The notes beneath the pieces were generated by a model. The model was not told the origin of the DNA and did no database searches. It worked only from the letters and a program-made list of their open reading frames with translations. This document shows, piece after piece, positions 1,026 through 20,574 of a stretch of 23,645 nt of DNA (positions are counted from its first letter, which is position 1; every line of letters starts with the position of its first letter). The DNA comes from an uncultured cyanobacterium (lineage in GTDB: Bacteria > Cyanobacteriota > Cyanobacteriia > Cyanobacteriales > Cyanobacteriaceae), in assembly GCA_963749915.1 (NCBI GenBank), contig CAVVOP010000013.1, positions 1 through 23,645 on the forward strand, written 5' to 3'. The position numbers were made by a program, and so were the translations under genes.

Positions 1026-3683
1026 TCAAGATAAATCTTGGCCCACTATGACGTTATCGTTATCACCTTGTTGGGCTATATTCTTCTTCAGCAATCCCGC
1101 CATTTCTGCTGACATTAATTTAAGGGATATTTCTATATTTTCTTTTGCTTTCACCATATCTCTGGCTGCATTTATAATATTTTCTACAAGCTTCCAGTCA
1201 TCTGGAATTGGAATTAAAATCGAGGATATATGCTTCGGTTCCAGATGTTGTTGAACAGAACCATACTCGTTTCTGATCATCTGATCATATCCTGCAAACG
1301 ACTGTAAATATGCGTATACGTAAAGGCGCAACTTTTCATCAGAAATTCTTACACCAATCATATCGTCAGAGACAATCACTCCTACGAGCTTTTTAGTTGC
1401 ATAGGCTACACGTCCAATTGTCCCAGATCGCGTAACTAAAATATCTCCATGATTGACCCTTAAAGCCTTGATTGTACGAAGTTGATTTGTAGATGCTCGT
1501 GATATATCGATTGGCTTAGCACTCTCAGATTTTTCTTGTAGCACAGCCATTGGTGGATAGTAGAGTTCTGATCCCCTTGAAGCATCATCAACGACCAAAT
1601 TTTCTGTCTTAATTCTTGGCCCTTTAAAGATTGCAACATCCTTTGATATTTGTCCAAGAGTTGATACAGTCCATCCGTCAATACCATCTATCTCTTCAAT
1701 TCCTTTAATTGTCCTGTTTAAGTTAGGAAGATAGAATTGAGGGTTTATACACAAAGTTTCACTTAGATTTGTTCGCTCAACGGAAAATCTATATTCTGAC
1801 TCCTTCAGAGTATTTTTTTCAAAATCTCTATAATCAGATAATATTTCGTTCAAATCATGATTGATAATATCTGTCTCTGTATTCTTATCATCGCGCTTAA
1901 ATATTGGAATACCTTCGCTATCTTGTCCAACTTTTTTAGAAACTCCCATAAAAATAGAATAATTTGTGCTAATTTTCTCCCCCTCTTTTGGGCGATAAAT
2001 AAATACCAAGCAAGTTCTTACACCCGTATGTGGTTGAAAGGTGTTTTTATGGCAATTTACAACTGCTAAAAGTTTGTATCCATTGAACAATTGCTTTCGT
2101 GCGGGATAATAAGTTGTTGTGTCTAAAAAACTTTTTGGCATTACTATCCCAATTTTTCCACCAGGTGATATCCATTTAAGGCAACGCTCAAAGAACAGCA
2201 TTTCAGGTGGAACTCCATCATCTATAATTTGTGAAGTAAACTCAAACTTACCTTCCACGTTCTGTCCACTTCATCCCACAAGAGTAATTGTCTAGTATTT
2301 TCTTGTCAGTGATCCTACCTTCACCAACTCCACCAAAAGGGGGATTAGTAAGTATTATTGTAGGCTTACCTTCACCAGCACGAGCTATCACATGATCGTC
2401 AAGTTTAGCAAAAAGCCCAAGACTATCTCCTTGCGTCATGCCTGCGTGACCATCGCCATTTAAAATCATTGCAGTTTTTGCAATTTTCACCAACCGCTTG
2501 AGCTTTGCTCAATTATAAACAAATTTGTTCTATGTTTATCTAATGCGCGCTCTTTTGATATTTTTGTTCCAGTACCTGTAAGAATATTCTTTCGGATAAA
2601 GCGCATAGCAACTGTAAGAAATCCACCTGATCCACCCGCAGGATCAAGAATAATATCCCTATAATCAGGGTTTAAGATGGCTACCATCAAGTCAATTACT
2701 GGACGATTGGTAAAAAATTGCCCCTGTTGCCGCTTTAGATATGAAGCTGTATATTGCTCGTATGCGCTTCCCATTATGTCCCAATCATCGGAGTCATGGA
2801 GATTGCTTAACAACCTAAAACTTTGCAGTTCATTCACCACGTCACAAATAGCACGCTCCCCAACAGTAATTCGCTCAGTTTCACTAAATACCAATGGATT
2901 GGTAGAAACTGCTTCCTTAAACAAGTTTTGAACTCTCAGAGCTACAGATTTACGTCCTGCATCACTACCATACTCTTCTGGAGTGCAATAAATATCAGGC
3001 ATCTCTTCAGACTTCTCCTCATCTATTGCTTTGGCAAGAATCCGACGAATCATATCCATTGTTAAATCATCCTCATCACCATCAATCCCTCTACCATGCA
3101 ATTTGTTATGGCAACGACGAAGTAATCCTTTTATGTCTTTGGGTCTTAATAAATCTGACTTATTTCTGCGCCTAGTCCAATCCCATACCTCCCCGTTACG
3201 AGGTAGCCCTGTCCAATCGATTAGAATGTTTGAAGGGTTACTAAGTCTACGAAAATACTTAACATTGTCACCGTTGAACCATGCTGCACCATTTGAACTA
3301 GTATTGAAAATATATGAAACTAATTGGTTATAACCATTTGTTTCGCTAGGAGCCTTGCACTCTACAATTATGTCAATCTGACCTTGGTTTCTTTCCTTAC
3401 AGGCTTTGGGGTTATTGTAAACTACAATATCTGCTCTTACTGGGTTTCCTTCTTTGTCTTTTACTTCACTTCTTCCGTAGTAAATTGGAACTGTACGAGG
3501 ACGAACACTTTTAGGGTAATTATATTCGTAGTGAAGTGTTCTCAAGTACAGTTGCCTAACATATTCCTCAGGTTTTGGTTCAAGTTCAATAATTGAAAGA
3601 AAGTCAACAATCTTTCCATTTTCGTTTAGCGGTATATCAAATGAATTCTGAGGATTGCCCATTTTCAAGTTTAGTGTTTCCAA
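1026..3683 (-). pseudogene. Fused restriction endonuclease / N6-adenine methyltransferase / specificity-domain protein (type IIG/IIB-like), split into three ORFs by two frameshifts (~2490, ~2255)
   Basis: N-terminal HsdR_N-like PD-(D/E)xK (PEEYVRQ...RADIVVY...IIVECK); GQFFT; motif I ILDPAGGSGGF; motif IV NPPF in 2248-2493; HsdS-like C-terminus (GDILVTRSGTIG, GSVQQHLEPKHISSILIPIP). Confidence 0.85.
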
Positions 3684-4125
3684 CTAGTAAAGTTTTTATG
3701 CCTAAATTCTAGGGTCTCGCCATAATTAAGTTAAGAGGTGCAGGACTAACCCAACATAAATATATACAATCTATGACATCTACAACCAACTATCTTGCTT
3801 ACCCAATCTTGGCGAAAACAGATAGCTTCAGGAGAGGGATCACTTTTCAGCATAACTATTTATTATAATGAAACTTTCTGGATAACATACCAAATAGTTA
3901 TATTATCAAGAAATATTCTGTATATCAGATTATGGTTAAAATCTACCAAAAAATTTCTTATAAATTTATTTTATTCAATATAAGTATAAGTAAAAAACCA
4001 TTACCGAGATATTTTTCTTAATATAAATATATATTACCCATACATTTTTTAATATTACCTATAAATCTTTTTCTCTAAAAACACTATAATTACTTAATAA
4101 ATTTTAACAATTTCTGTGTGAGGAA

Positions 4126-4352
4126 ATGTCAAACTTAATATTCATCGAAGCTCGTGGTGGGTTAACTACGGGTGAAACGCTTTTAGAGTTAATTAATCAA
4201 TATCCGCAAGGCTGTACTATAAAACATCTCAGTAAAGCTATTAACCGCCCTGTTAGTCAATGATTAACTTATCCCTCAAGGCATTGATTAGTAACAAACA
4301 GGTTAAGGTAAAGCTGATGGGAATGCAGAGATTGATTTATCCTAGAGTTTAG
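4126..4352 (+). pseudogene. Small winged-helix DNA-binding protein, frameshifted
   Basis: GAGG then ATG 4126: MSNLIFIEARGGLTTGETLLELINQYPQGCTIKHLSKAINRPVS, continuing in another frame as MINLSLKALISNKQVKVKLMGMQRLIYPRV*. Confidence 0.55.
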
Positions 4353-4366
4353 TTTTATCTGAAGTC

Positions 4367-4624
4367 TTAAATATCTCCTTTATAACTCGATGACCAACCA
4401 AATAATTTTCGTAGGCGTTGAGAAGGATTAAATTTAAACACTGTACTATCCCTTTTTCCTTCAATATAAAATGTTCCAAAATTTCTTAAATTGACACTTT
4501 CTTTATCTTTTAAACAATCATATATTTCTTCTAAGGTGGCATTAACAATTTTTTCGACAATCTCATCTTTTTGATTAATTTTTTCAGCAATACGTTTTAC
4601 TAATTCTTTCTGATTAATAGACAT
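4367..4624 (-). CDS. HU/IHF-family DNA-binding protein with shortened beta-arm
   Basis: INQKELVKRIAEK...V.LRNFGTF...FKFNPSQRLR matches the HU body; the RNPxTG arm is absent. Confidence 0.8.
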   Translation of the reverse strand: MSINQKELVKRIAEKINQKDEIVEKIVNATLEEIYDCLKDKESVNLRNFGTFYIEGKRDSTVFKFNPSQRLRKLFGWSSSYKGDI

Positions 4625-5193
4625 TTTATTTCTGTGGAGTCTCCATAAAACCTAAATGTTTCTAAATATCGATGACGAATCGAACCACAATTAACATTTT
4701 CCTCGACTTCAATACTTATAGTCGGAGATAACAAACTATAAGCTACTCTCCATTGACTATTCCCGACTAATACACCAGCCGTTTTCGGATTGAGTTTAAT
4801 GACTTCACCAAACAGTTCATTTCCTTGTTTATCTTTGAAACAAACGTGGTCACCAACTTTAATATGATTTTTGTTAGTTTTTTGTTTCGCTTTAAGATTA
4901 ATGTCAATATCTAAATTATCGATATTTATACAACAATAAGGAATATTCCATTGACCTCCATCATGTTGATTCTCAATCAAAACTTTCGTTGTTTTTAGTT
5001 GAATGATAGTAGCTTTGATTAAACGATTTTCTGTTAGATCAAAATAGCTAATTAATTGACCTACTTTGAGATGATTTTTAATTAAACTTAACCTAATAGG
5101 ATCATTTAATTGTTGATGAATAGCCACATTTAATCTATATAAGTCGAATAATGAGGCTTTATTTAACTCCGTTATTATTGCTGTATAATCCAT
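4600..5193 (-). CDS. Hypothetical protein with two SH3/KOW-like repeats
   Basis: Likely ATG at 5193 (MDYTAII). Repeated LKVGQLISY...W.IPY and IKVGDHVCF...WRVAY segments. Confidence 0.7.
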   Translation of the reverse strand: MDYTAIITELNKASLFDLYRLNVAIHQQLNDPIRLSLIKNHLKVGQLISYFDLTENRLIKATIIQLKTTKVLIENQHDGGQWNIPYCCINIDNLDIDINLKAKQKTNKNHIKVGDHVCFKDKQGNELFGEVIKLNPKTAGVLVGNSQWRVAYSLLSPTISIEVEENVNCGSIRHRYLETFRFYGDSTEIKCLLIRKN

Positions 5194-5206
5194 ATTTCTC
5201 AAATAT

Positions 5207-5463
5207 CTAAATATTAAGAGATAACTGACCAATAAGGATATTACCTTTACCGCCTTGATGATATTGGAGATGACAGGTATTGCATAAAGCTACTAAATTC
5301 TCTACTCTGTTATCTTCTGGTATTCTGTTCCAGTGGTGTACTTGCAGACAGTTACCCCTAGTTGATTTTCCTTAAAGTCTGCACCGCAGTTACTACACTT
5401 CCAGTTTGTCTTCTCTTTAACTGTTGTGGCTATCTCCTGCCAATCTTTACTATATCTGCTCAT
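5207..5463 (-). pseudogene. HNH endonuclease, one frameshift
   Basis: MSRYSKDWQEIATTVKEKTNWKCSNCG... then LQVHHWNRIPEDNRVENLVALCNTCHLQYH...GQLSLNI*; CxxC, HH-N-H and CxxCH motifs. Absent from the ORF track. Confidence 0.8.
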
Positions 5464-5522
5464 AAATCACCCTAACTCTCTCAGTCCATTGTAGGGCTTA
5501 TTTCTTACGAATTTAATAGAAT

Positions 5523-5609
5523 TGCGTCTCAATCGCCGTTGCTGTCCGTCTCGGTGGGGATTCTGTTTGTGGCTTTGTCTGGGTTGTTTCCGTCACCGTT
5601 GTCCGTTAA
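5523..5609 (+). pseudogene. 3' remnant of an adenine-depleted gene paralogous to 15519-15803
   Basis: Translates CVSIAVAVRLGGDSVCGFVWVVSVTVVR*, matching SAVAVRSCPAVAGCWVVSVPVV. Only two A in 5533-5606. A T-run follows at 5628-5635. Confidence 0.65.
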
Positions 5610-5943
5610 GTGTTTCTCGTTGGGGGCTTTTTTTTATCTTTCTAATAAGTGTATTAAACTTTACATTACTGGTAAAATACTTTAATTTTGGTTCTAGTAC
5701 TTTACTTAGTAAATTATTTTACAACTACTCTTAAATACACTTAGTAAAACACCAATATTTGAATAATCACAAATCCTTATTCTAAAAGACATAAAGCCTC
5801 ATATCTTCTCTTAAAGTACATATCTACTAAATCAATTAAAAGGCTAGATTAAATTGCTTATAAAAAACTTAATAATTCATTTTCGTACTTTCGCAGTTTT
5901 CATGGATAAAATGAAAAAGTATGAAAATTGACGAGATCATATT

Positions 5944-6540
5944 ATGAATGACATAGAAAATAAAAATACAATAGAAATAATCGAAATAAGTGCGGAAACA
6001 CATAAACGTATTACGGAAGTGACCGAAATAATCGGAGTCAAAAATACAACTCTTTACAAAGATTTAGAGTTTTTAAAAATTAGCACAATTAAAGATAATG
6101 AGAATCTTTCTTGGATTAGTAATGAAGATTTCGAGAGACTTTTGCTATTAAGGAAGTATATAGAAATTAATGGTCGTAGAACAGGATTTGATGAGAAAAA
6201 AATGGGTGAATTAGTAACTGTAGAAAATAATAAAATTACTAATAATAGTAATAATGGAAATGGTCAAATAAGTAATCAAGAAATCTATGTTACTCCTGAA
6301 GATCCCAAGGATAATATGGATTTAGATAATATTGTGAGAAAGGGTGCTGAATTAAAGGCTCGTGAAATTGCTATGCCTCATTTAGTTGTCAGGGCGATCG
6401 CTGATAAATTGGAAGAACATGAGTTACCTGAAGATTTACAGGAAAAGATTGAGGATGCGAGGGAAGCAAGTAACCCAAAGTTTACGCCGTCGGAGGTGGC
6501 GGATTCAATCTTGATGAGTTATCGCCAAAACTTAGCTTAA
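5944..6540 (+). CDS. Hypothetical plasmid protein, possible N-terminal HTH
   Basis: Intact 198-aa ORF; ITEVTEIIGVKNTTLYKDLEFL is HTH-like; contains a HIP1 site. Confidence 0.7.
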   Translation: MNDIENKNTIEIIEISAETHKRITEVTEIIGVKNTTLYKDLEFLKISTIKDNENLSWISNEDFERLLLLRKYIEINGRRTGFDEKKMGELVTVENNKITNNSNNGNGQISNQEIYVTPEDPKDNMDLDNIVRKGAELKAREIAMPHLVVRAIADKLEEHELPEDLQEKIEDAREASNPKFTPSEVADSILMSYRQNLA

Positions 6541-7353
6541 ATGATGACCAGTTAAACAAGATAGTTCAAATACTTAAAAATAGAACTAGTTTAATTATTA
6601 TTGCGGAAACGGGAAGTACTGAATACCTACCAGAATATTTATTCTGTTCTTTGGCTGATTATTACTCCTGTGCGATCGCCACCTATAAAGGCAGTGCTAA
6701 AAAGTTTATTGAAAAGGTAGCGTTTGATTTAAGCATTGATACCACAGAGCCTAAATTTAACAATAAGGGTGATTGTACTGGTGAGCGACGACTTACTGTG
6801 GATGAACTGAAGGAGGCGATCGCCGAATCATGTGATGAAGATACTACGATAATTATTCCTTTTGCTAATCGTTTACCAACGTCAATTAGATATTGGTTGG
6901 AGGATTTGATGAATATAGGGGTAACTATTTGTGCGATCGCTAACAATAATCCTTGTAAAGATATTTTCCTAGAAATGCTGGAGACTGGAGTTAGATTTAC
7001 CCAAGGATAAGCAGATTCGGGAAATAATGAAGGATGAAGCCCAGAGGTTGGGGTTGAGTTTGAGCGATCGCAAATTAGCTGAGTTACAATCTTATGTAGG
7101 TAAGAATCCGATGTTAGCCCGTAAAGCTATTCAGAATGAGTATCTGGGACTGAATAAACAAAATCCTCAGCATACCCAATATGTGGTGATTATGCCGATA
7201 ATTATTGCTATTTTGATGGGTTTTGGCATCGTTAGATTTATCGGTCTGGGAACAGGGAATAAGTCACTTTATATCTTTGGTGGTGTCACACTTGTGGCAG
7301 GAATGACTTTAAGGCAGTTAGGTAAAGTTTCAGGAGCGAGGAGGAAACTATAG
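6474..7353 (+). pseudogene. Degenerate P-loop ATPase-like protein with C-terminal membrane helices, frameshift near 6984
   Basis: Frame open from 6474 with no ATG. IIIAETGSTEY resembles an eroded Walker A. Removing one base joins IFLEMLE to LELDLPKDKQIREIMKDEAQ. Two hydrophobic segments at the C-terminus. Confidence 0.55.
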
Positions 7354-7403
7354 GATAATATCTTTATAAATAAATAGTGGCTTAAGAGGAGTTTATTTTG
7401 TTG

Positions 7404-7817
7404 ATGAAAAAGCAGAATTGGATTACTGATCCTTCAGTTATTGGGGTTTGAGTAGCAACGGCGTAAGAAACAACGTTAAGGACTTTTAGCCGAGCCAAAT
7501 TAACGAATTTAGTAGGGTTTTAGCCTTCAAAATCTTATTCAGATTTATAGATTACCTGCTCAATTAGTAAATATGTACGCAATCAAAATTCTTACTATGA
7601 CTGAGTTTCAGGCTTAGCGTTGTTTTCTGTTCACTTGCTACTCAAACCCCTTATTACGGAATTAGTTAGATTCGATTCTCAAGGAACAGCGACGGTAGTT
7701 GCTGATATAGAATATGGTAATTTTCTTTCTGCTAATCTTACCCCTGGGAATTATGGCTTAAGTTTTTTTGTGGAAGGAGATTTAATTGATTATCAAGTAA
7801 ATGCTCAATTCCTCTGA
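7404..7817 (+). pseudogene. ~66-aa ORF interrupted by the Tn3-type MITE
   Basis: GAGGAG then ATG 7404. Removing 7443-7655 gives in-frame MKKQNWITDPSVI-TELVRFDSQG...VNAQFL*. Confidence 0.55.
7443..7650. mobile_element. 208-bp Tn3-family MITE
   Basis: 38-bp IRs GGGGTTTGAGTAGCAACGGCGTAAGAAACAACGTTAAG (7443-7480) and reverse complement GGGGTTTGAGTAGCAAGTGAACAGAAAACAACGCTAAG (7613-7650), the GGGG...ACG[C/T]TAAG Tn3 pattern. Perfect 5-bp TSD TTATT. Confidence 0.92.
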
Positions 7818-8121
7818 ACTTGATTAATTTCTACAGAGGATTATTGATTAGACTCCCACAAAAATTAGGTCTAACATTTTAGCCGTCGGGTTATTGTAAT
7901 CAACAATAGTAATTGATGCTAATAACGATTAATTAATAACAGATTGTGACAGAGATATATTTGTTAGCCATTTTGGGCAGAATTTATTTATAGACTAAAA
8001 TTCCCTGAAATTCGATTGAATTAAATGTTTGGTTTTTGAGGTCAATTTGCTACTTCCCTGAATAGTTACCAATAAAATCAAGAAAATTAACATCAAATGA
8101 ATAAAAATTAAAAAACATCAA

Positions 8122-8673
8122 ATGAATAAAAATTTGTTTATTATTGGTTTACTATTATCTAATGTCATGATTAATAGTCATCCAGTAACTGCACAACAGG
8201 AATTATGTCGAGACATTGGTTTTGTTGAAGCCTCAGAAACTTATCGCACTTTAGAACTTCCCCAGTTTGGCATTAATATTGATATACCTGAAAACTATAG
8301 AGCAATAGCCCGAAATGATGGTTCGATCGAAATTTTAGATCCGGGAAATTTTGAACTAATATCATGTATAGCAAGAGGAGGAAAGGTAGTTTCTGCTAGA
8401 GGGGGTGCTGGTGGTTTAACGATTCGCTTAGTCAAAAACCCAAGAAATTTACCACTTTTAACGCTACTTCGGCAAGAAAAGGTCTATTACAATAACTATT
8501 ATCGTTATAACTTAAGTGGAGTAGAAGTCGTAATTACGGATGCAGTGTATACTATTGAGGCATGGTTTTCCCCGCCTAAAATTAACGGTGTGGTTGTTAT
8601 GGATATTAGTTCCGATATTGAATTGAGTAAAGATGACATTATTGAGGAATTAGATAGAACTCATCTACGATGA
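8122..8673 (+). CDS. Exported hypothetical protein
   Basis: Intact 183-aa ORF with a signal-peptide-like N-terminus ending VTA-QQ. Confidence 0.75.
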   Translation: MNKNLFIIGLLLSNVMINSHPVTAQQELCRDIGFVEASETYRTLELPQFGINIDIPENYRAIARNDGSIEILDPGNFELISCIARGGKVVSARGGAGGLTIRLVKNPRNLPLLTLLRQEKVYYNNYYRYNLSGVEVVITDAVYTIEAWFSPPKINGVVVMDISSDIELSKDDIIEELDRTHLR

Positions 8674-8748
8674 TATGATAAATTTATTATTGAAAACCAA
8701 AGATTAGATAGTATTTAACTACAAATGTAGATATGAGAGATTCAATCA

Positions 8749-8908
8749 ATGGTAAATCTAAATCTTGGAGTCGGATTAACTCTCGTTGGTCATTATCAAA
8801 AGCAACCACAAGAGAATGAGGAGAGGGAATCTGGGTAATAACTCCTTCCAGTCCACCAAAATAATGATTATCTTTGATTCTGACGCGATCGCCAATGGAT
8901 AAGGGATT
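8749..8908 (-). repeat. Diverged duplicate of the KOW/SH3-like coding segment at 10124-10282
   Basis: NPLSIGDRVRIKDNHYFGGLEGVITQIPSPHSLVVAFDNDQRELIRLQDLDLP versus NPLSVGDRVKVKDNHYFGG..GVVTQIPSPHSLVVAFDNDQRELIRLEDLDLP. Confidence 0.85.
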
Positions 8909-9047
8909 GAGCCGAGATAAGTGTAAAAGAGTGCAAAATTTCAATGTTCTAATGGTAATATTAAATATCCTTGGGGACTTTAGAAATATTAATTTTTGCA
9001 TATTTAGTAATAGCTAATGTTATGAAAAAATTTTATAAAATTGTAAT

Positions 9048-9578
9048 ATGATACAAAATATAGTTCAAAATCATTTAAATATAATATATAAAATCTTAAA
9101 AATAAAACCTAAAAGATTCTTAAAATGTATTCCTGTAATTTTAGCTGTTGTTTTCTATTCAAATAAAGGTTTTGCAAAACCTTTATTTTCATTGCTAGGT
9201 ATAGGTCATGTTCATGCTTATTCAGGTTTGAATACACAACAAGCAACTATAATTACTACACCTATTTGGGAAGAACTTGAAAATTTGTGTGATAGAGGAG
9301 TTGGTGGTGGAAAAATTCATAATAGACAAGGATATGAAAAATGTCTTCAAGATTCTAAAAAACAACTACAATTAGGCAATCTAAAGAAAACAATTCGTGT
9401 TAATTGCTTGGCAATGTTAGTTCAATTTGAAGGTTATCCACCATCCTATATTGACAAAATACAAGGCGATGAAATAAGTAATCCCGAAGCACCTTTATAT
9501 AAAGCTTTTTGGATAGCTTGCCCATCACATTCGTATTCAAAAACTTTAGAATTTTTTAATCAATATATTGTTAATTAA
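9048..9578 (+). CDS. Hypothetical protein, probably exported, Cys-containing
   Basis: 176-aa ORF with basic then hydrophobic N-terminal stretch (CIPVILAVVFY) and four further Cys; start uncertain. Confidence 0.6.
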   Translation: MIQNIVQNHLNIIYKILKIKPKRFLKCIPVILAVVFYSNKGFAKPLFSLLGIGHVHAYSGLNTQQATIITTPIWEELENLCDRGVGGGKIHNRQGYEKCLQDSKKQLQLGNLKKTIRVNCLAMLVQFEGYPPSYIDKIQGDEISNPEAPLYKAFWIACPSHSYSKTLEFFNQYIVN

Positions 9579-9595
9579 ACAAAATATTCTTACAC

Positions 9596-9638
9596 GGCGA
9601 AAACATAGGGTTGGTGACACCAACCCTATGTTTTCGCC
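9596..9638. repeat. Perfect 43-bp palindrome
   Basis: GGCGAAAACATAGGGTTGGTG-A-CACCAACCCTATGTTTTCGCC, lying between convergent genes. Confidence 0.9.
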
Positions 9639-9797
9639 CACCCCGCATTTTTTCCAAACTAAGGGTTTGGCACAGAGGTGGTAGACATCTGTAAATTCTT
9701 GAATAGCTTTTTACATATTATGATTGTTTTCTAGAAAAATATACAGAATTATAGTTAATTGATTCGCTGCTTCAATAAGCTGACGATCGCAAAAGCG

Positions 9798-11408
9798 TCA
9801 GAGCAAAGCTCTGAGTGCTTCCTCCCCATGGTTATTAACGTACTGCTGTATTATATTTAGAGTAGTAATCGAAACATTTAATGATTTAAGAGGACTATTA
9901 AATTTGGGGAAATTATAAGTTTCCTGTTTCTTGCTCTGAGCTAAAAAACGAGTTAAAGCACCGTCAATAGTAATAGCACCAGTTTCAGCCCGAAGATTTT
10001 GTAACTGATGATAGGTTTTTTCCTCCACCTCTATATACCATTTACAACCTTCTCCTGCTTTATAGTTAAGTCCTTCTTTAATCAGAATTTCTTTCTTCTG
10101 AGGTTTTTGTGGTTGAGATAATGATGGTAAATCCAAGTCTTCGAGTCGGATTAACTCTCGTTGGTCATTATCAAAAGCAACCACAAGAGAATGAGGAGAG
10201 GGAATCTGGGTAACAACTCCTTCCGCCCACCAAAATAATGATTATCTTTTACCTTAACTCGATCGCCTACAGATAAAGGATTAGTTATTTTCTGTTTTCC
10301 TTTAGTGGGTTTGACATTGGTAGAATCTATTAATTCAGCAGTAGTAACAAGGGGAGTGGGGAGTTGGGAGTTGGGAGTGGTGTTTTCTTCTTCCTTTACC
10401 TCATCTTCTGATAGTTGTTCAGAAATTATCTGATTATCTTCTGCTGGTGGGAATGATTCTGATGACTTAGGTTTACCAATGTTGGTGGTGTCCTGAATAT
10501 AGGTTTTTCCTCCTCGTTTTACTTTTCTCTGATTGTTAAGTTTGTATCTTCGGTTATTGTGCGTTAAGCATAGAATTGCATTTTTTAGATTTATTCCGAA
10601 GAGTACAACAAAATGTTCGGAGACCCACACTGTTTAGCAATTTCCGATTACTCCATTGACTCCATTCAGAATCTTCAAGTAGAGTCATTACAGCCTTACG
10701 TTTATCCTCATTACTACGGCGTAAACCATGAGTAGAATTGACACGTCAGAGAAAATAATAAAGCTTCTCGGTAAGTACCAGATTTTTCGATAAAGGGTAA
10801 TTCAGTTATTCCTGCTTGTTTCGCCGCTTCTACTCGGTGAAAGCCATCAACCAAATAATAACGGGGAGTGGGCAGTGTACTTTGACTGGGTTCAGTAACC
10901 AGAGAGTCAGCAGTGGAGGTTAATTCAGAATTATGAGAATCAATTACTTGATTATTGTCACTACTCCCTACTCCCTGCTCCCATTCCCTACTCGCTCACT
11001 ACTCCCTACTCCCTGCTCCCCACTCCCTTCTTCTCTCCAGACGGTTATAGGAGGAAGTTCGACACCTTCAGAATAAGCCTGAGCATAATCATCCACCACA
11101 GAATCATTAATCTCTACCCTCTGCTGTAGGTTGACATCAATGGTAAGTAAAGTTAGCTTAATCTTTCCTGATACTTCCCGAATGCTATCTGAAATCGCCA
11201 TCGGTTTATTAACCTTCTGAAGATTGTTAGCCAGTTCGGGGCTAGGAACATTAGAACTATCCCAATTAACCCAAAACTGCAACATCTTGCCGTTATTAAC
11301 GTGAATGTCAGTTACTTTGCCGACATTCCCCCTCGCAAATACCCAATCACCGATTCCAATGTGATTAGGATTGAGAGAAAAGTCAGGATAATTTTTAGGT
11401 TTAGGCAT
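9798..11408 (-). pseudogene. ParB/Srx-like nuclease-domain protein with HTH and KOW segments, multiple frameshifts
   Basis: QQRVEINDSVVDDYAQAY...LPPITVW, YYLVDGFHRVEAAKQAG and NSTHGLRRSNEDKRKAVMTLLEDSEWSQWSNREIAKQC in successive frames; spans ORFs 10968-11420, 10151-10630 and 9798-10184. Confidence 0.75.
10910..10969. repeat. 60-bp core repeat, copy 1, flanked by heptamer tracts
   Basis: GCAGTGGAGGTTAATTCAGAATTATGAGAATCAA.TA.TTGATTATT.TCACTACTCCCT, also at 11558-11617. Flanks are GGGAGTG/GGCAGTG and CTCCCTA/CTCCCCA heptamers. Confidence 0.85.
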
Positions 11409-11557
11409 TTTGACCTCCACCCATGGATTTAAGCCATTGAGCTAAACGATTTTGGAAATTCTCATTAACGGGTATTTCTTCGGCAGATTCCTTGGTATAG
11501 GTTTTATACTTTTTCCCCTCAGCATCAGTAACAGAGGGAGTGGGCAGTGGGCAGTGG

Positions 11558-15442: not shown

Positions 15443-15478
15443 TGGGTTGGGGAAATTATAGATATTATCCTTAACGAC

Positions 15479-15511
15479 AAAAAAAAGAAGGCAGGGGCAA
15501 CAACCCCCACC
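15479..15511 (-). terminator. Adenine-free intrinsic terminator
   Basis: Minus strand GGTGGGGG-TTGTTG-CCCCTGCC-TTCTTTTTTTT, just after the TAG at 15519-15521. Confidence 0.65.
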
Positions 15512-15518
15512 AGAGCCA

Positions 15519-15803
15519 CTAGGGAAGAGAAGCCCAAGCACCCCACCCACGAACGGGCGAGGACGCAGGAACAACAACGGGAACAGACACAACCCAGCAC
15601 CCCGCAACAGCAGGACAAGAACGAACCGCCACCGCCGAGAAACCACAAGCACCAGCCCACCGCCGAGCAAAACCCGAAGCCAAAGCCAACGAACCAAACC
15701 GAGCAACCAAACGGAAGCCACCACCAGAACGCCCCGGACGCAACCACCAAGAACAACAGCCACAAGCCAACGCCGAACCAGAAACACAACGGAAAGAAAC
15801 CAC
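15519..15803 (-). CDS. Adenine-free small protein (94 aa from GTG; frame open to 15857)
   Basis: No A on the sense strand except in TAG; codons mostly end in T; followed by a terminator; paralogous fragment at 5523-5609 supports this frame. Start uncertain (GTG 15803 or CTG 15839). Confidence 0.7.
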   Translation of the reverse strand: MVSFRCVSGSALACGCCSWWLRPGRSGGGFRLVARFGSLALASGFARRWAGACGFSAVAVRSCPAVAGCWVVSVPVVVPASSPVRGWGAWASLP

Positions 15804-16217
15804 AGCAACAACCGCCCACGAGGACGAACGAAAGAACAGCTTTCTTCTTGCCCGACCTCATTTTTCACAGAGCGCTTGAAATGGGCGCAAGGCAGGCGCA
15901 GTCGCCGTTACGAAGACTATAAGCAAGTAGAACTAAACTATGGCGGCGCAAGTCGCCTAGTCGCCCCACGATAAAGGGCATAATAGAAAAGCTGTCGTTC
16001 ATTATCCTCACCAGTTCTAGCCACGCAGTGGCCAGTGAAGGCAAAAAGACTATGTTTTTAACCACTAATAATGTGTTGAAAAGTGTTTTCTATAGTAGCT
16101 GTATTTCAAGCTAGATATTAATATATATTAAGAAAAATATCTAGGTAATGGTTTTTACTTATACTTATATTGAATAAAATAAATTTATCAGAAATTTTTT
16201 GGAGTTGATAAGAAATT

Positions 16218-16568
16218 ATGTCTAAACAAGCCTGGCTTCTCTTTATTGATGGCCGTATTGCTCAGGAACAAGGTGATATAGACTTAGCATTGCTGAAAAT
16301 TAAGCAAGCTCTCGATATCACCCCATCAAATCCTTCTTTCTTACGTGCTTATGCTTCTGCTCTTTTACAGAAAGCAAGTTCTTCATCTGCAACCGGTTCT
16401 GACATTGAAAACAGATATCAGCAACTGGCTGCTGAATTGGCGTTCGCCTCTGAGTCTGACACACCCAACAACTGGATTCCTGCTCTTGAGGAACTCAAAC
16501 AATCCCTAGAATCAGCCCCACTTCCTGCTCCTGGTGCAGCCGCGTTAGTATCGGCCGTAGCTTGGTAA
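16218..16568 (+). CDS. TPR-like small protein, putative precursor with C-terminal core AAALVSAVAW
   Basis: GGAG upstream; AWLLFIDGRIAQEQGDIDLALLKIKQALDITPSNP is TPR-like; ends LPAPG-AAALVSAVAW; directly upstream of a radical SAM gene. Confidence 0.75.
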   Translation: MSKQAWLLFIDGRIAQEQGDIDLALLKIKQALDITPSNPSFLRAYASALLQKASSSSATGSDIENRYQQLAAELAFASESDTPNNWIPALEELKQSLESAPLPAPGAAALVSAVAW

Positions 16569-16604
16569 ATGCGGGTATCGTGACTTAATATAAGCGAAAC
16601 AAAC

Positions 16605-16649
16605 AGAAAAACACGATACGATGTTTACTACATCATTACGTGTTTTTCT
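16605..16649 (+). terminator. Stem-loop between putative precursor and radical SAM gene
   Basis: AGAAAAACACG...GATGT-TTACT-ACATC...CGTGTTTTTCT. Confidence 0.55.
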
Positions 16650-16698
16650 ATCCTTCATTGATCAATGGTAATAAGGTGCATAGAAATATCTTAAAATA

Positions 16699-18117
16699 AT
16701 GAAACTTCAACATGGACATCTAATAGCATTTGATAGGTTTATGCCAATTTATAATTGGTACTACCCCATATATAATACTGTTTACGACACCCAATTAAGT
16801 AATCCCTGGGATATTTATTCACATGTCAATATTGAGGGAATTAATAGTAGAGCACTTTATATTCATATTCCATTCTGCGAAACCATATGTTCGTTCTGTC
16901 CTTTTTCACGCACAACTTTTGCCTCTTATAGCAATGTCAAGAGATATGTTGAAGCACTTATTAAAGAGATCACTTTAAAGTGTAAACATAAAACAATTAC
17001 AAATATCCCGATCTCTGCGATTTATTTTGGGGGTGGAACCCCATCTGTTCTAGAACCTGACGAGATTATTTTAATTGGTCGGGTAATTAGGGATAACTTC
17101 GATCTCTCACAATTATCTGAATTTTCCTTCGAGTTTGAAGTCAAAAGTGTCTCAAAGGATCGAATTGATGCGCTCAAACAAATCGGTGTTACCCATGCTC
17201 GATTTGGGCTACAGACTTTCTCAGAGAAATATAGGAAACTATTCAATCTTACGTCATCATTAGAGCAAATTTATGATGCTTCATCAACACTCGTTGAAAA
17301 TTTCGATTACGTGTCCTTCGATATGCTCTATGGCATGCACGGCCAAACTGATGAAGAGTTTGTGGCTGACATCATACAAGCTACAAAAATGGGAACGAAT
17401 AATATAGATTTCTATCCAATTAACAATCTTGTCACACAGGATATATTACGAAAAAACTATGATAGGGATGGTTTAAAGGCAAGTAATGGTCTACGAAAAC
17501 TACACCTGAACGTGCTGTTAAGAGAATATTTAGCGAAACTTAATTTCTTTCCCCATAATGGTCATGGCTATGTTAGAGATGGATCAGGAAACAATGTGAA
17601 GAAAGAGTGCATAACTACCGATAAATACATCTTCAACTATCATAAACATGTCTACGGATACAGTGATACAGATCTTCTCGGATTTGGAAATGGGTCCATA
17701 TCATCTTTCTCAAATATTACAGTCACAAACTGTGATGATCGTGAGAAGTATATTGATAGTATAAATAGTGATCGAATTTTTTATCAAGTTGGTGAACATG
17801 AGCATGGTGCGTTTTATAACAAACCAATCACGATGCATTTACCTTATTTTGGATACCTTGATAAAAATTTAGTCAACTGGAACAATGTAAACCCATTTAT
17901 TATTGATAGCTTGGAAGAGCTTAAAAAGTATAGGCTTGTTTATGAAAACGAAAACGATTTTTATCTAACATTTATCGGATGGCTTTGGTATGTAAACCTA
18001 TTTTATTATCTTTCATCACCATGTGAGCGTCTCGGACTTGACATGCTAATTAAGCGTTTCCAAGACGAAATATCATACAATCCAAGTGAGGAGTATGAAA
18101 TAAAAATCCCGCGCTAA
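16699..18117 (+). CDS. HemN/HemW-like (class C-type) radical SAM enzyme
   Basis: LYIHIPFCETICSFCPF (CxxxCxxC), YFGGGTPS, RFGLQTF, FDMLYGMHGQT and LLGFGNGSIS. The N-terminus has PIYNWYYP where HemN has PRYTSYP. Confidence 0.92.
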   Translation: MKLQHGHLIAFDRFMPIYNWYYPIYNTVYDTQLSNPWDIYSHVNIEGINSRALYIHIPFCETICSFCPFSRTTFASYSNVKRYVEALIKEITLKCKHKTITNIPISAIYFGGGTPSVLEPDEIILIGRVIRDNFDLSQLSEFSFEFEVKSVSKDRIDALKQIGVTHARFGLQTFSEKYRKLFNLTSSLEQIYDASSTLVENFDYVSFDMLYGMHGQTDEEFVADIIQATKMGTNNIDFYPINNLVTQDILRKNYDRDGLKASNGLRKLHLNVLLREYLAKLNFFPHNGHGYVRDGSGNNVKKECITTDKYIFNYHKHVYGYSDTDLLGFGNGSISSFSNITVTNCDDREKYIDSINSDRIFYQVGEHEHGAFYNKPITMHLPYFGYLDKNLVNWNNVNPFIIDSLEELKKYRLVYENENDFYLTFIGWLWYVNLFYYLSSPCERLGLDMLIKRFQDEISYNPSEEYEIKIPR

Positions 18118-18135
18118 TTAACATGTTCTACTGGT

Positions 18136-18747
18136 CTATAACATAGGTGGTTGTCCAGTTGGCCCTTGAGCAGAGGGGAGTTTCCTCAATATCTTTATAA
18201 ATTCCTGTGAGGAATATAGTGTTCCATATTTCAAATAGTCTAGATATTGCTCTGGAGATTTAACGAGTAAGATATTATTTCGGGAATTCTCATTCAGCCA
18301 AAATGTATGCATATGAAACTCTGGTATTAGTAATAACCTGACGACTGGATCTCCAAGGACATTCCTATCTACCCAATCAGTCGCCTTTGAAATAGCTCTA
18401 CTAACCTGTGAATTGGACGAGACTCGTAGGACAGACCAGTCAGAAGATTTGTCATCATTTGGTGGTCGTGTTTCTGCGAAGCTAATATCAGAGTCATCAA
18501 TTGAGATTTGGTGATGCCAATGATTTAGAGGTTTAACATAGTTCCCAAAGGAACCACTATCTAATTTTAGGGAGTAAACGCTACATTTGAAAGTCCAAAT
18601 AGATAACGTTTCCTTTATTTCAGCCTCCGGCAGAGCTCCTCCTGGTGGTGGAAGGAAATCCTTTCTTATTAGTGGATTCAGCCGTTCTCCAATTAGCGGT
18701 GCAATTATGTCAATTGCATTATCTGGTAAGGTATCTGTGTGTGTCAT
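18136..18747 (-). CDS. Hypothetical protease-partner protein
   Basis: Intact 203 aa, 21 nt downstream of the protease. VRLLLIPEFHMHTFWL resembles an uncharacterised family I recall next to papain-like proteases. Contains LPPPG. Confidence 0.75.
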   Translation of the reverse strand: MTHTDTLPDNAIDIIAPLIGERLNPLIRKDFLPPPGGALPEAEIKETLSIWTFKCSVYSLKLDSGSFGNYVKPLNHWHHQISIDDSDISFAETRPPNDDKSSDWSVLRVSSNSQVSRAISKATDWVDRNVLGDPVVRLLLIPEFHMHTFWLNENSRNNILLVKSPEQYLDYLKYGTLYSSQEFIKILRKLPSAQGPTGQPPML

Positions 18748-18768
18748 AAATCAGTTGCGTACTCTTTT

Positions 18769-19311
18769 TTAATTAGATGTAATATTAGTGTATGTCAATA
18801 CCCAATCTCCAAGATCATATGCCGATAAGACATATTCATATGAACATCGACTAGTTTCAAACCATGGATCGTGAACCTCTACATCACCATTAGAATAGTA
18901 ACCTCTAACGATTGCAACATGAGAATTACCACTATTCCAGAGAAAATATGGCTCAATCGGTTGTCCAACATCTAACTGATCTTGTAGTTCATCTTTACTC
19001 AGTGCTCGCTGCACTCTATCATATTTAATATTCCAATTTGAATACGATCTATCAGGCCATCTAGCCTGATTACAAGAACTTGGCAGCGGATTTTGATCAA
19101 GTGGACATTGATCCCCGAGCTCAAATGATACAATCTGCTCCTGAGTAACATTATTTATCCCATAATGAATAAAAACCATTTCACAGCAAGCAGCCCAACA
19201 CCAATTAGTCATATTTTGTTGTCGGTATGGAATTGCTAAAATAAGATCTATACTACCTGGTGGTGGAAGAGATGAAGGAATCTTCTTTCCTGACGAAACC
19301 TTTAGTGGCAT
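18769..19311 (-). CDS. Papain-fold cysteine protease (C39-like / AvrRpt2-like)
   Basis: IPYRQQNMTNWCWAAC (oxyanion Q, catalytic C), SHVAIVRGY (H) and VHDPW (D); no signal peptide. Confidence 0.88.
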   Translation of the reverse strand: MPLKVSSGKKIPSSLPPPGSIDLILAIPYRQQNMTNWCWAACCEMVFIHYGINNVTQEQIVSFELGDQCPLDQNPLPSSCNQARWPDRSYSNWNIKYDRVQRALSKDELQDQLDVGQPIEPYFLWNSGNSHVAIVRGYYSNGDVEVHDPWFETSRCSYEYVLSAYDLGDWVLTYTNITSN

Positions 19312-19419
19312 AGTTGGAATTTCTTAGAATATAAGATTATTGAAAATAATCTTATATTCTAGATCAAAATCGTTCATCTTTTATTAAAGATGGTTCCGCT
19401 CCAAAAAACGCCAGATAAG

Positions 19420-19604: not shown

Positions 19605-20024
19605 TTTATATTCAAGAATGTGATTATAATGTTTGAAGAGTGGTATTTTAAGGTATTCCAACTTCCGTTTTAGGCAAAGTCTTTTTACTGATTTGTATAA
19701 CTTATATTTAAGCGTTTATTAAACAAAGTTTCTTAAATCTCTGTATTGCTTATAGACCAAGACTTTGACGGGTATGTTGCCCCTCATTGCAGCAACCTTC
19801 TATTTCCGCCTACCTGAGCATTATCTGATCGGTTTATACTATTAAAGCTGGTAAATTAACAGTTTAATATCAGATTTTAAGTTAGTTATAACTCCAATTA
19901 TTACAGTAATTAAATTGAGGATTATTAGGTTTATTTTTATCAGAAACTAAGTTAATTATTTCACAGTCATAAATTAGTAATTTTTGTATAGTTTTAAGGG
20001 GCTATTAACCCCTAATAAAGTTAA

Positions 20025-20574
20025 TTATTTAATTGATAGATAAGTTGATTTTTCTCCTAGTTCTGCATACTTTAAGGCTTCTGCATCACCATTAATTACT
20101 GCTTCTTTAAGTGCCTTTTTATCTACTTCTATTGTTACCTTCTGGTATTGTTGAGGATAGCTTTTAGCATCTTCTCTGAGTAAATGTAAGGGAGCTAACC
20201 GATGCTTTTCTGATGGATATATTAAACTTATTTGTTCTGAACTTAGTTTTACCTATTTTCTCTAAATGTTGTTTAAGATATTCTTGTAACCATTCAATAG
20301 TTTTCTCATCCTTTTTAATTAATTTGTTCAGTCTTTCTGCCTCTGCTTTTCTCATTTCTAACCATCTTTTTCTCGACTGAATTAAGCATAAAATTGAATC
20401 AATTTTATCAATAAATTTATCATTTGTTTCTTCTGCTTCTGCTAATAATTCTAAGTATTCCAAATGTAAATCAGCCGGTATATCTACACCCTCCAGATTC
20501 TCTATTGTCTCCTCTAATTCCTGAAGGCGATTGCTTAATTGATAGAGTTTGTATCTACCTTTAGTTTCTGTCAT
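20025..20574 (-). pseudogene. Siphovirus Gp157-family protein, one frameshift near 20190
   Basis: KLYQL...KIDSI...KAEAERL...LQEYL...KFRTNKFNISIRK, continuing as ...YQKVTIEVDKKALKEA...AELGEKSTYLSIK*. Confidence 0.8.

Follow-up and report, generated by a model that had tools for sequence, protein, structure and literature searches.

A HemN-like radical SAM enzyme with a Trp-ending small protein and a papain-like peptidase with a pro-domain-like partner: two probably independent modules in one cyanobacterial cargo slot

A 23,645-nt stretch of DNA from an uncultured cyanobacterium (contig CAVVOP010000013.1 of assembly GCA_963749915.1; hereafter the window), which is the entire contig C13 of a 4.7-Mb genome, carries between positions 16218 and 19311 four adjacent genes. 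A first-pass annotation made from the sequence alone took them for one compact system producing a peptide that is made on the ribosome and modified after translation (a RiPP). We favour another reading, with a probability of roughly 0.7, in which two independent modules share a variable cargo slot. Module A would be a RiPP-like pair, in which a HemN-like radical S-adenosylmethionine (SAM) enzyme modifies the Trp tail of a 116-aa protein, while module B would be a split zymogen, composed of a papain-like peptidase and a separately encoded 203-aa protein. Within a widespread family of RiPP-like systems, module A represents a minimal form.

Both genes of module A lie on the plus strand. The 116-aa precursor or carrier protein (16218..16568) has a TPR-like helical N-terminal part and a hydrophobic tail ending in Val-Ala-Trp-stop, and the gene after it encodes a 472-aa radical SAM enzyme (16699..18117) that is HemN-like (class C-type) and belongs to a subfamily not yet characterised. 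Module B is encoded on the minus strand, by the gene for a 180-aa stand-alone papain-like cysteine peptidase (18769..19311) and that for the 203-aa protein, whose fold is that of a staphopain pro-region (18136..18747). As first described, the ORF list of the window gives four uninterrupted frames arranged as two convergent pairs, and the converging stops of the enzyme gene and the 203-aa gene are 18 nt apart. Pfam yields a sub-threshold TPR match for the 116-aa protein (residues 4-57), Radical_SAM as the enzyme's sole domain (the family alignment reveals a conserved N-terminal extension as well), nothing for the 203-aa protein, and Peptidase_C39_2 (E 6e-10) and C70 (E 1.8e-8) for the peptidase.

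The evidence for module A comes from the neighbourhoods of related enzymes. Of 8000 candidates, 6188 matched the enzyme in a search. The 119 best of these apart from itself share 42-50% identity with it and come, by their source names, from Proteobacteria, Actinobacteria, Bacillota, Chloroflexota and Cyanobacteria. Scans of genomes and metagenomes with generic HemN motifs contributed at least 5 and at least 8 family members among the 80 loci listed, the rest serving as controls. In all, we collected 35 family loci, the window included, of which 19 belong to related Burkholderiaceae genomes and are not independent; L088, a duplicate of L087, was excluded. All but L209 had enough upstream DNA for a test in which we looked for an ORF of at least 15 aa that ends in Trp-stop and lies on the same strand no more than 1.2 kb upstream of the enzyme gene. 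Of the 34 family loci, 31 have such an ORF, and so do 19 of the 113 control loci, whose HemN-like enzymes are distant. Without the window the count is 30/33, and it falls to 29 once a spurious frame at L165, a locus disrupted by insertion sequences, is removed. The misses are L164, L004 and L210. At L164, on an Alicyclobacillus plasmid, a 10-residue Trp-ending ORF (~5860-5895) stands behind a strong ribosome-binding site and a four-residue Trp-ending unit is repeated twice, which makes this candidate precursor the shortest carrier seen; L004 has a candidate Trp-ending peptide ahead of its operon, and the enzyme gene of L210 contains stops. A small gene-encoded partner is thus co-conserved beside the enzyme, as is the case for RiPP precursors.

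Alignment of the TPR-type precursors points to the same residue. All 27 members of this family end in Trp, with Ala, Val, Ile or Ser at position -2; as a background, the host genome has 2996 long ORFs, 35 of which end in Trp. Three kinds of carrier are found. Most family loci have peptides of 22-29 aa, whereas in the window, L082, L083, L085, L086 and L208 the same enzyme is preceded by a TPR protein (110-126 aa), and L087 and L226 have TIGR03067-like domains with a Trp-ending tail. An indirect sign of linkage is that 7 of the 26 other TPR homologues seemingly come from the same genome as a top enzyme match; no viral locus was found for the TPR family. Given this co-occurrence and the invariant last residue, the radical SAM enzyme very likely has the 116-aa protein as its substrate, which supports the first-pass proposal of a precursor with a TPR-like leader and a Trp tail, and the terminal Trp is strongly implied to be the reacting residue. 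Since carriers of three unrelated kinds have this terminus in common, recognition may follow a short and portable rule. By eye, a Phe stands about 14-16 residues before the Trp in the short peptides and 13 residues before it in many TPR types, and it possibly marks a common recognition helix. At L002, two tandem genes encode the same 23-residue Trp-ending peptide (5351-5553).

As to the enzyme itself, the curated cut-offs place it outside HemN, HemW and HutW. Its NCBIfam scores are all far below the thresholds (HutW 165 of 400 bits, HemN 114 of 325, HemW 104 of 205), even though its predicted model (pLDDT 91.6) matches HemN best (1olt, TM 0.69). The motifs C60/C64/C67, Y54, GGGT (G111-113) and D208 each occur in 59/59 family sequences, and the window enzyme keeps every invariant column of this 59-row alignment; H166, R168 and HNGHG (286-290) form the subfamily signature. 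In a quick tree with SH-aLRT support only and long outgroup branches, the family is one clade (SH-aLRT 99), and the window enzyme falls on a long end branch (0.96) within a subclade rich in TPR-type loci. With its own genome counted each time, the enzyme is present in 1 of 61 relatives, 1 of 401 genomes of the phylum and 2 of 401 genomes of the order, and a further survey found it in 19 of 346 genomes, with five genomes unscored; this distribution appears patchy and mobile. A complex prediction of the enzyme with the 116-aa protein scored 0.04 vs a mark of 0.32, and we did not use it as evidence either way.

Most family loci contain further genes. By tblastn over the 35 loci, SpeD (SAM decarboxylase) was matched in 27, an MFS transporter in 27, a P450 in 6 and SpeF (ornithine decarboxylase) in 4, while ATP-grasp ligases were matched in 1. 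Of the SpeD matches, 26 are full ORFs; 5 of 5 copies tested pass the TIGR03330 cut-off, and the Glu-Ser-His processing site is retained in the aligned copies, along with a His-x-x-Pro motif. Passages of PMC10407285 describe a conserved Pro that separates true S-adenosylmethionine decarboxylases (AdoMetDC) from arginine decarboxylases, and this may be the proline of the His-x-x-Pro motif. The same search found no SpeD, MFS, P450, SpeF or ATP-grasp gene at the window locus. On the host chromosome there is a SpeD-like gene as well as a SpeE-like one that scores below the cut-off. Since L086 and L087 likewise have no accessory genes of the SpeD, MFS or P450 type, the minimal form recurs. As a check on direct use of decarboxy-SAM, we looked for spermidine synthase in 5 cluster-bearing Burkholderiaceae genomes; it was above the cut-off in 0 of 5, with sub-cut-off matches in 4 of 5. 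The earlier argument that the lack of a transporter points to a product acting inside the cell is weak, as most family loci do have an MFS gene and the window copy is minimal or truncated. Nor does PADLOC support the defence role that was also considered: three of the proteins have no match, and the enzyme has one weak match (E 3e-5 over 107 residues).

Three loci deserve a mention for their gene content. At L004 of Nocardiopsis codii (3281-11554), the Trp-ending peptide candidate is accompanied by three probable ATP-grasp ligases, the enzyme, an MFS gene, SpeD and a Trp-2,3-dioxygenase-like gene, a set which hints at a small-molecule product derived from Trp. Among the TPR-type loci seen, L208 (G764:C74) is the most complete, with precursor, enzyme, P450, class I methyltransferase and SpeD. 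In the cyanobacterial L226 (G1243:C117, 8032-11944), a TIGR03067-like carrier gene and a 606-aa gene, whose product resembles a cobalamin-dependent radical SAM enzyme, precede the HemN-like enzyme, and no SpeD, MFS or protease match was found within 17 kb.

The SAM site of the family seems to be remodelled. Position 166 is His in 56/59 family sequences and Arg in 136/145 controls, and position 184 is Leu in 58/59 and Arg in 90/145, both by alignment mapping only; position 168 is Arg in 59/59 and Ser in 144/145 controls. According to passages of PMC12871812, Arg153 of NocN binds the methionine part of SAM-II; this residue aligns to His166 of the enzyme, and NocN Arg171 to Leu184, so that by alignment the Arg residues for the SAM methionine parts are not kept in the family. 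The invariant R168 may compensate for this loss, but it could equally anchor the carboxylate of the peptide. Leu184 occurs also in the outgroup loci L006 and L090 (Ile in L007) and in SpeD-less basal loci, and thus does not track SpeD. The H166/R168 pair does track it, two basal loci without SpeD keeping Arg/Ser; being confined to one clade, this pair counts as one event.

In the mechanism that we propose for module A, the TPR-like helical part of the 116-aa carrier would probably serve as the recognition handle. The enzyme would bind two SAM-type molecules and make a SAM-methylene radical, as is established for its family. Across the HemN-type family, this radical either attacks an sp2 carbon, as in NosN (on indole), C10P, TbtI and ChuW, or, in HemN, abstracts hydrogen and drives decarboxylation (PMC10114718). 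By analogy, one carbon would be added to the indole ring of the terminal Trp in the manner of NosN, C10P and ChuW (+14 Da), or the terminal carboxylate, a backbone nitrogen or an amine would trap the methylene (+12 Da). We give such one-carbon transfer slightly better than even odds, because the nearest profile is that of the C1-transferring HutW family. The main rival chemistry, which we regard as unlikely, is oxidative decarboxylation of the Trp to an indolyl-enamide (-46 Da), as for HemN and MftC; it would explain the need for a free terminus, and the terminal Trp offers what we see as an analogue of HemN's propionate, an aryl-CH2-CH-COOH unit. MftC is a SPASM-type enzyme that acts on Val-Tyr with a RiPP recognition element (RRE) partner, and is not HemN-like. 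Its decarboxylation of a C-terminal Tyr is described in passages of PMC10288494. Less likely still is the transfer to Trp of an arm derived from decarboxy-SAM or a polyamine, which would explain SpeD and SpeF. As no dedicated protease is conserved in the family, the product would either be cut by housekeeping peptidases or stay a modified small protein. Host proteases serve many RiPP clusters.

A broader version of the last chemistry seems doubtful, though worth stating: the HemN-like enzyme, its SAM site remodelled by His in place of the SAM-II-binding Arg and by a new Arg in strand 4, would use SpeD-supplied decarboxy-SAM or polyamine to derivatise the last Trp of interchangeable carriers. 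If true, this would be a widespread class of Trp-terminus modification that has not been described, and would amount to a portable C-terminal tag on 10-30-aa peptides, TPR proteins and TIGR03067 domains; in the carrier-protein forms, proteins would be modified, instead of a RiPP with the usual leader and core.

In its working, module A resembles the class C radical SAM maturases of RiPPs, but we found no class into which it fits. With the thiopeptide class C enzymes NosN/NocN and TbtI (PMC10114718; passages of PMC12871812) it has in common the HemN-type two-SAM scaffold, including the SAM-II stacking Tyr (Y54, equivalent to NocN Y34) and the bridging Asp (D208, equivalent to NocN D196), and NosN adds a methylene to a peptide-borne indole (PMC10114718), much as would be the case for the proposed Trp target. 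Unlike these systems, it comes without thiopeptide machinery, its apparent target is an encoded terminal Trp, and its family is linked to SpeD and MFS genes. The second comparison is with ChuW/HutW (TIGR04107), the best NCBIfam match, and C10P/YtkT, which perform C1 radical addition to a pyrrole-type ring (PMC10114718); here the enzyme differs in scoring less than half the cut-off, in lacking a heme-uptake or NRPS (non-ribosomal peptide synthetase) context, and in having a co-conserved peptide or protein partner. In the full-text literature searched, judged by titles and abstract openings and with most subscription journals outside it, we found no HemN-like enzyme described together with a Trp-terminal precursor or SpeD; it is rather unlikely, though by no means negligibly so, that module A has been described before.

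The first-pass annotation assigned the release of the modified tail to the peptidase, and here the wider sample speaks against it. By tblastn, the protease and its 203-aa partner were found in 0 of 34 other enzyme loci, and therefore in 1 of 35 overall, the window only; whole-genome searches of 7 enzyme-bearing genomes likewise found the 203-aa family in none of the 7. A word-based search with the 203-aa protein found itself alone, whereas an exhaustive one gave 405 homologues. Among 401 cyanobacterial genomes the family was found in 3, and among 351 actinomycete genomes in 1. Directly upstream of it, on the same strand, a papain-like gene lies in 4 of 4 readable outside loci (L172, L173, L223, L166), of which L172 and L173 are two genomes of one genus and L166 was reached via the peptidase. 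Three of the genomes with this stand-alone pair were searched for the enzyme and have only distant HemN-like genes (~100 bits). Two Streptomyces peptidases, L167 and L168, were not counted as further pairs, as their downstream protein differs (E 0.03, 0.21).

What the 203-aa partner might do is indicated by its predicted structure. The top match of its AlphaFold model (pLDDT 92.1) is prostaphopain B (1x9y_A, residues 42-191; Z 8.7, rmsd 5.1, 138 residues aligned, 15% identity), the next match having Z 6.0; Foldseek also ranks prostaphopain B first (E 0.01, prob 0.99), and an embedding search gives the same lead at a low score (0.77). By sequence the protein has no solved-structure match and no plasmid match; the peptidase has 7 plasmid matches, of which 3 were inspected. 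The peptidase residues Q32, C38, H131 and D148 are kept in 6 of 6 aligned sequences. We found no C47 Pfam match for the peptidase and no papain fusion among 149 homologues of its partner; the fusions that do occur in this pro-domain-like family are with Ycf66_N, patatin, sigma-54 activator and membrane domains (P0150, P0206, P0219, P0256, P0264).

The 203-aa protein is thus, judging from its model, a probable inhibitor or chaperone of the neighbouring peptidase, and the simplest reading of module B is a split papain zymogen or a protease-inhibitor pair with its own history. Its fold and the gene order suggest that the catalytic gene is read before a separate staphopain-like pro-domain, which would restrain or fold the protease. 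Prostaphopain (MEROPS C47) and the SpeB-Spi pairs likewise combine a papain-like catalytic domain with a pro-region fold; unlike in prostaphopain, the pro-domain of module B is a separate downstream gene and the catalytic domain scores as C39_2/C70. A related papain fold is found in the C39 leader peptidases of peptidase-containing ATP-binding cassette transporters (PCAT; passages of PMC10318531), but the peptidase studied here is a stand-alone C39_2/C70-like protein without an ABC transporter, and the double-Gly leader motif is absent from the precursor-family alignment. A literature search for a protease/pro-domain gene pair found no description of one.

As for the genomic setting, the two modules occupy the cargo slot (16205..19414) of a multi-copy plasmid- or prophage-like element, whose backbone recurs on many contigs of the same genome; the slot DNA itself is unique in the genome, while its flanks are recurrent. 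The flanking segments 15471-16204 and 19999-20550 match contig C8 of the host (G000:C8, 877702-876962 and 874738-874190), and there the paralogous slot encloses other genes, namely a 226-aa ORF and two genes that resemble a toxin-antitoxin pair. As the four genes fill a variable cargo slot, their adjacency alone tells little.

That the four genes form one system after all, with the papain peptidase removing the TPR leader and releasing the modified Trp tail, perhaps upon recent local recruitment, seems to us improbable. Their close packing in one unique block would fit this, as would the lack of any other conserved peptidase in the enzyme family and a single Gly about 10 residues before the Trp in the precursor-family consensus. 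However, the pair is missing from all other enzyme loci and occurs alone in 4 loci, the peptidase is not of the transporter-fused C39 type and has no double-Gly motif to act upon, its partner resembles the peptidase's own pro-domain, and the slot of the paralogous element holds unrelated cargo. Module A might instead be a remnant, stranded when the downstream part of a longer operon (precursor, enzyme, P450/MFS, SpeD) was replaced by module B, and making no finished product. In most family loci the next same-strand gene comes right after the enzyme, whereas here an opposite-strand partner ends 18 nt away; moreover, the window enzyme has the long branch mentioned above and deviates at near-invariant sites such as Y109 (F in 58/59) and F384 (H in 54/59). 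Yet both ORFs are intact with all invariant columns kept, two other loci do without accessory genes and the host chromosome can offer a SpeD-like gene, so this scenario is hardly likely either. Far less credible is a HemN, HemW or HutW protein beside an unrelated small gene. The relatives of the enzyme do bear the database names 'coproporphyrinogen III oxidase' and 'anaerobilin synthase', and HemN is its best fold; against this stand the scores far under the curated cut-offs, the strong enrichment of Trp-stop ORFs, the patchy and mobile distribution, and the heme genes, of which there are none among the annotated neighbours of the family loci and, as noted in the first-pass annotation, none nearby (29 window ORFs scanned with Pfam).

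Several points weigh against our own reading of two independent modules. The chemistry of module A is wholly inferred. With 19 of 35 loci being Burkholderiaceae kin, the counts overstate independence. Five other TPR-type loci had DNA, only 3 of them with at least 2 kb downstream, so the TPR type may yet have a rare linkage with the protease. The G+C content at third codon positions does not separate the modules (0.33, 0.32, 0.32, 0.23), which fill one unique block and may have arrived together. The window enzyme lies on a long end branch and is without all the usual accessory genes, and the staphopain match is a moderate one.

The outcome is nevertheless broader than the claim that it started from, namely a widespread candidate family for modification of a Trp terminus, with exchangeable carriers, which the earlier note had overlooked together with the SpeD link. 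HemN-like enzymes are a very large group, mostly mis-annotated and with few known reactions, and one widespread subfamily now gains a candidate substrate, a free C-terminal Trp. A portable Trp rule would be useful for site-specific indole chemistry on proteins. The tight SpeD linkage and the changed SAM-binding residues make it conceivable that a radical SAM enzyme here works with decarboxy-SAM, and the protease pair points to a family of more than 400 stand-alone staphopain-like pro-domains.

A few features of the DNA itself remain to be described. The stem-loop reported after the small gene is indeed present on the plus strand between the precursor and enzyme genes (16605..16649), with 20-nt arms (16605-16624 and 16630-16649) that are 85% complementary. 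The folding energy of the intergenic segment is -26.3 kcal/mol (z -2.29; 4 of 200 shuffles equally good). A consensus terminator scan made no terminator call there, and the structure is possibly an attenuator or a stabiliser favouring the precursor mRNA. A perfect 17-bp inverted repeat directly upstream of the peptidase start codon (19325..19361) is a possible operator or hairpin. The density of the highly iterated palindrome HIP1 points to a cyanobacterium as the source. The four-gene stretch is free of HIP1 sites, as first noted, but this is not meaningful in 3.1 kb, where 1.0-1.4 sites are expected (P(0)=0.24-0.35); we therefore dropped it as a sign of foreign origin. For a wider site-free gap of 6.8 kb, P is 0.04-0.10. 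A promoter scan was at chance level (17 found vs 15.1 expected).

In an RNA library, a 225-nt contig matches the precursor gene (16241-16465) with no differences; such contigs are not proof of transcription, as DNA is possible in a library of this kind. The window had a small share in one RNA-library run, and its contigs leave the enzyme and protease genes uncovered, which shows nothing. Elsewhere in the window, Pfam identifies integrase, HU, SSB, Gp157 and restriction-modification genes. One restriction-modification gene (1026-3683, minus strand; HSDR_N_2, N6 methylase and specificity domain) is split over three overlapping frames and is probably a pseudogene or the result of assembly frameshifts. 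The left flank of the slot (15471-16204) is G+C-rich and strongly skewed, holds three overlapping minus-strand frames, and is repeated on contigs C7, C8, C9 and C23.

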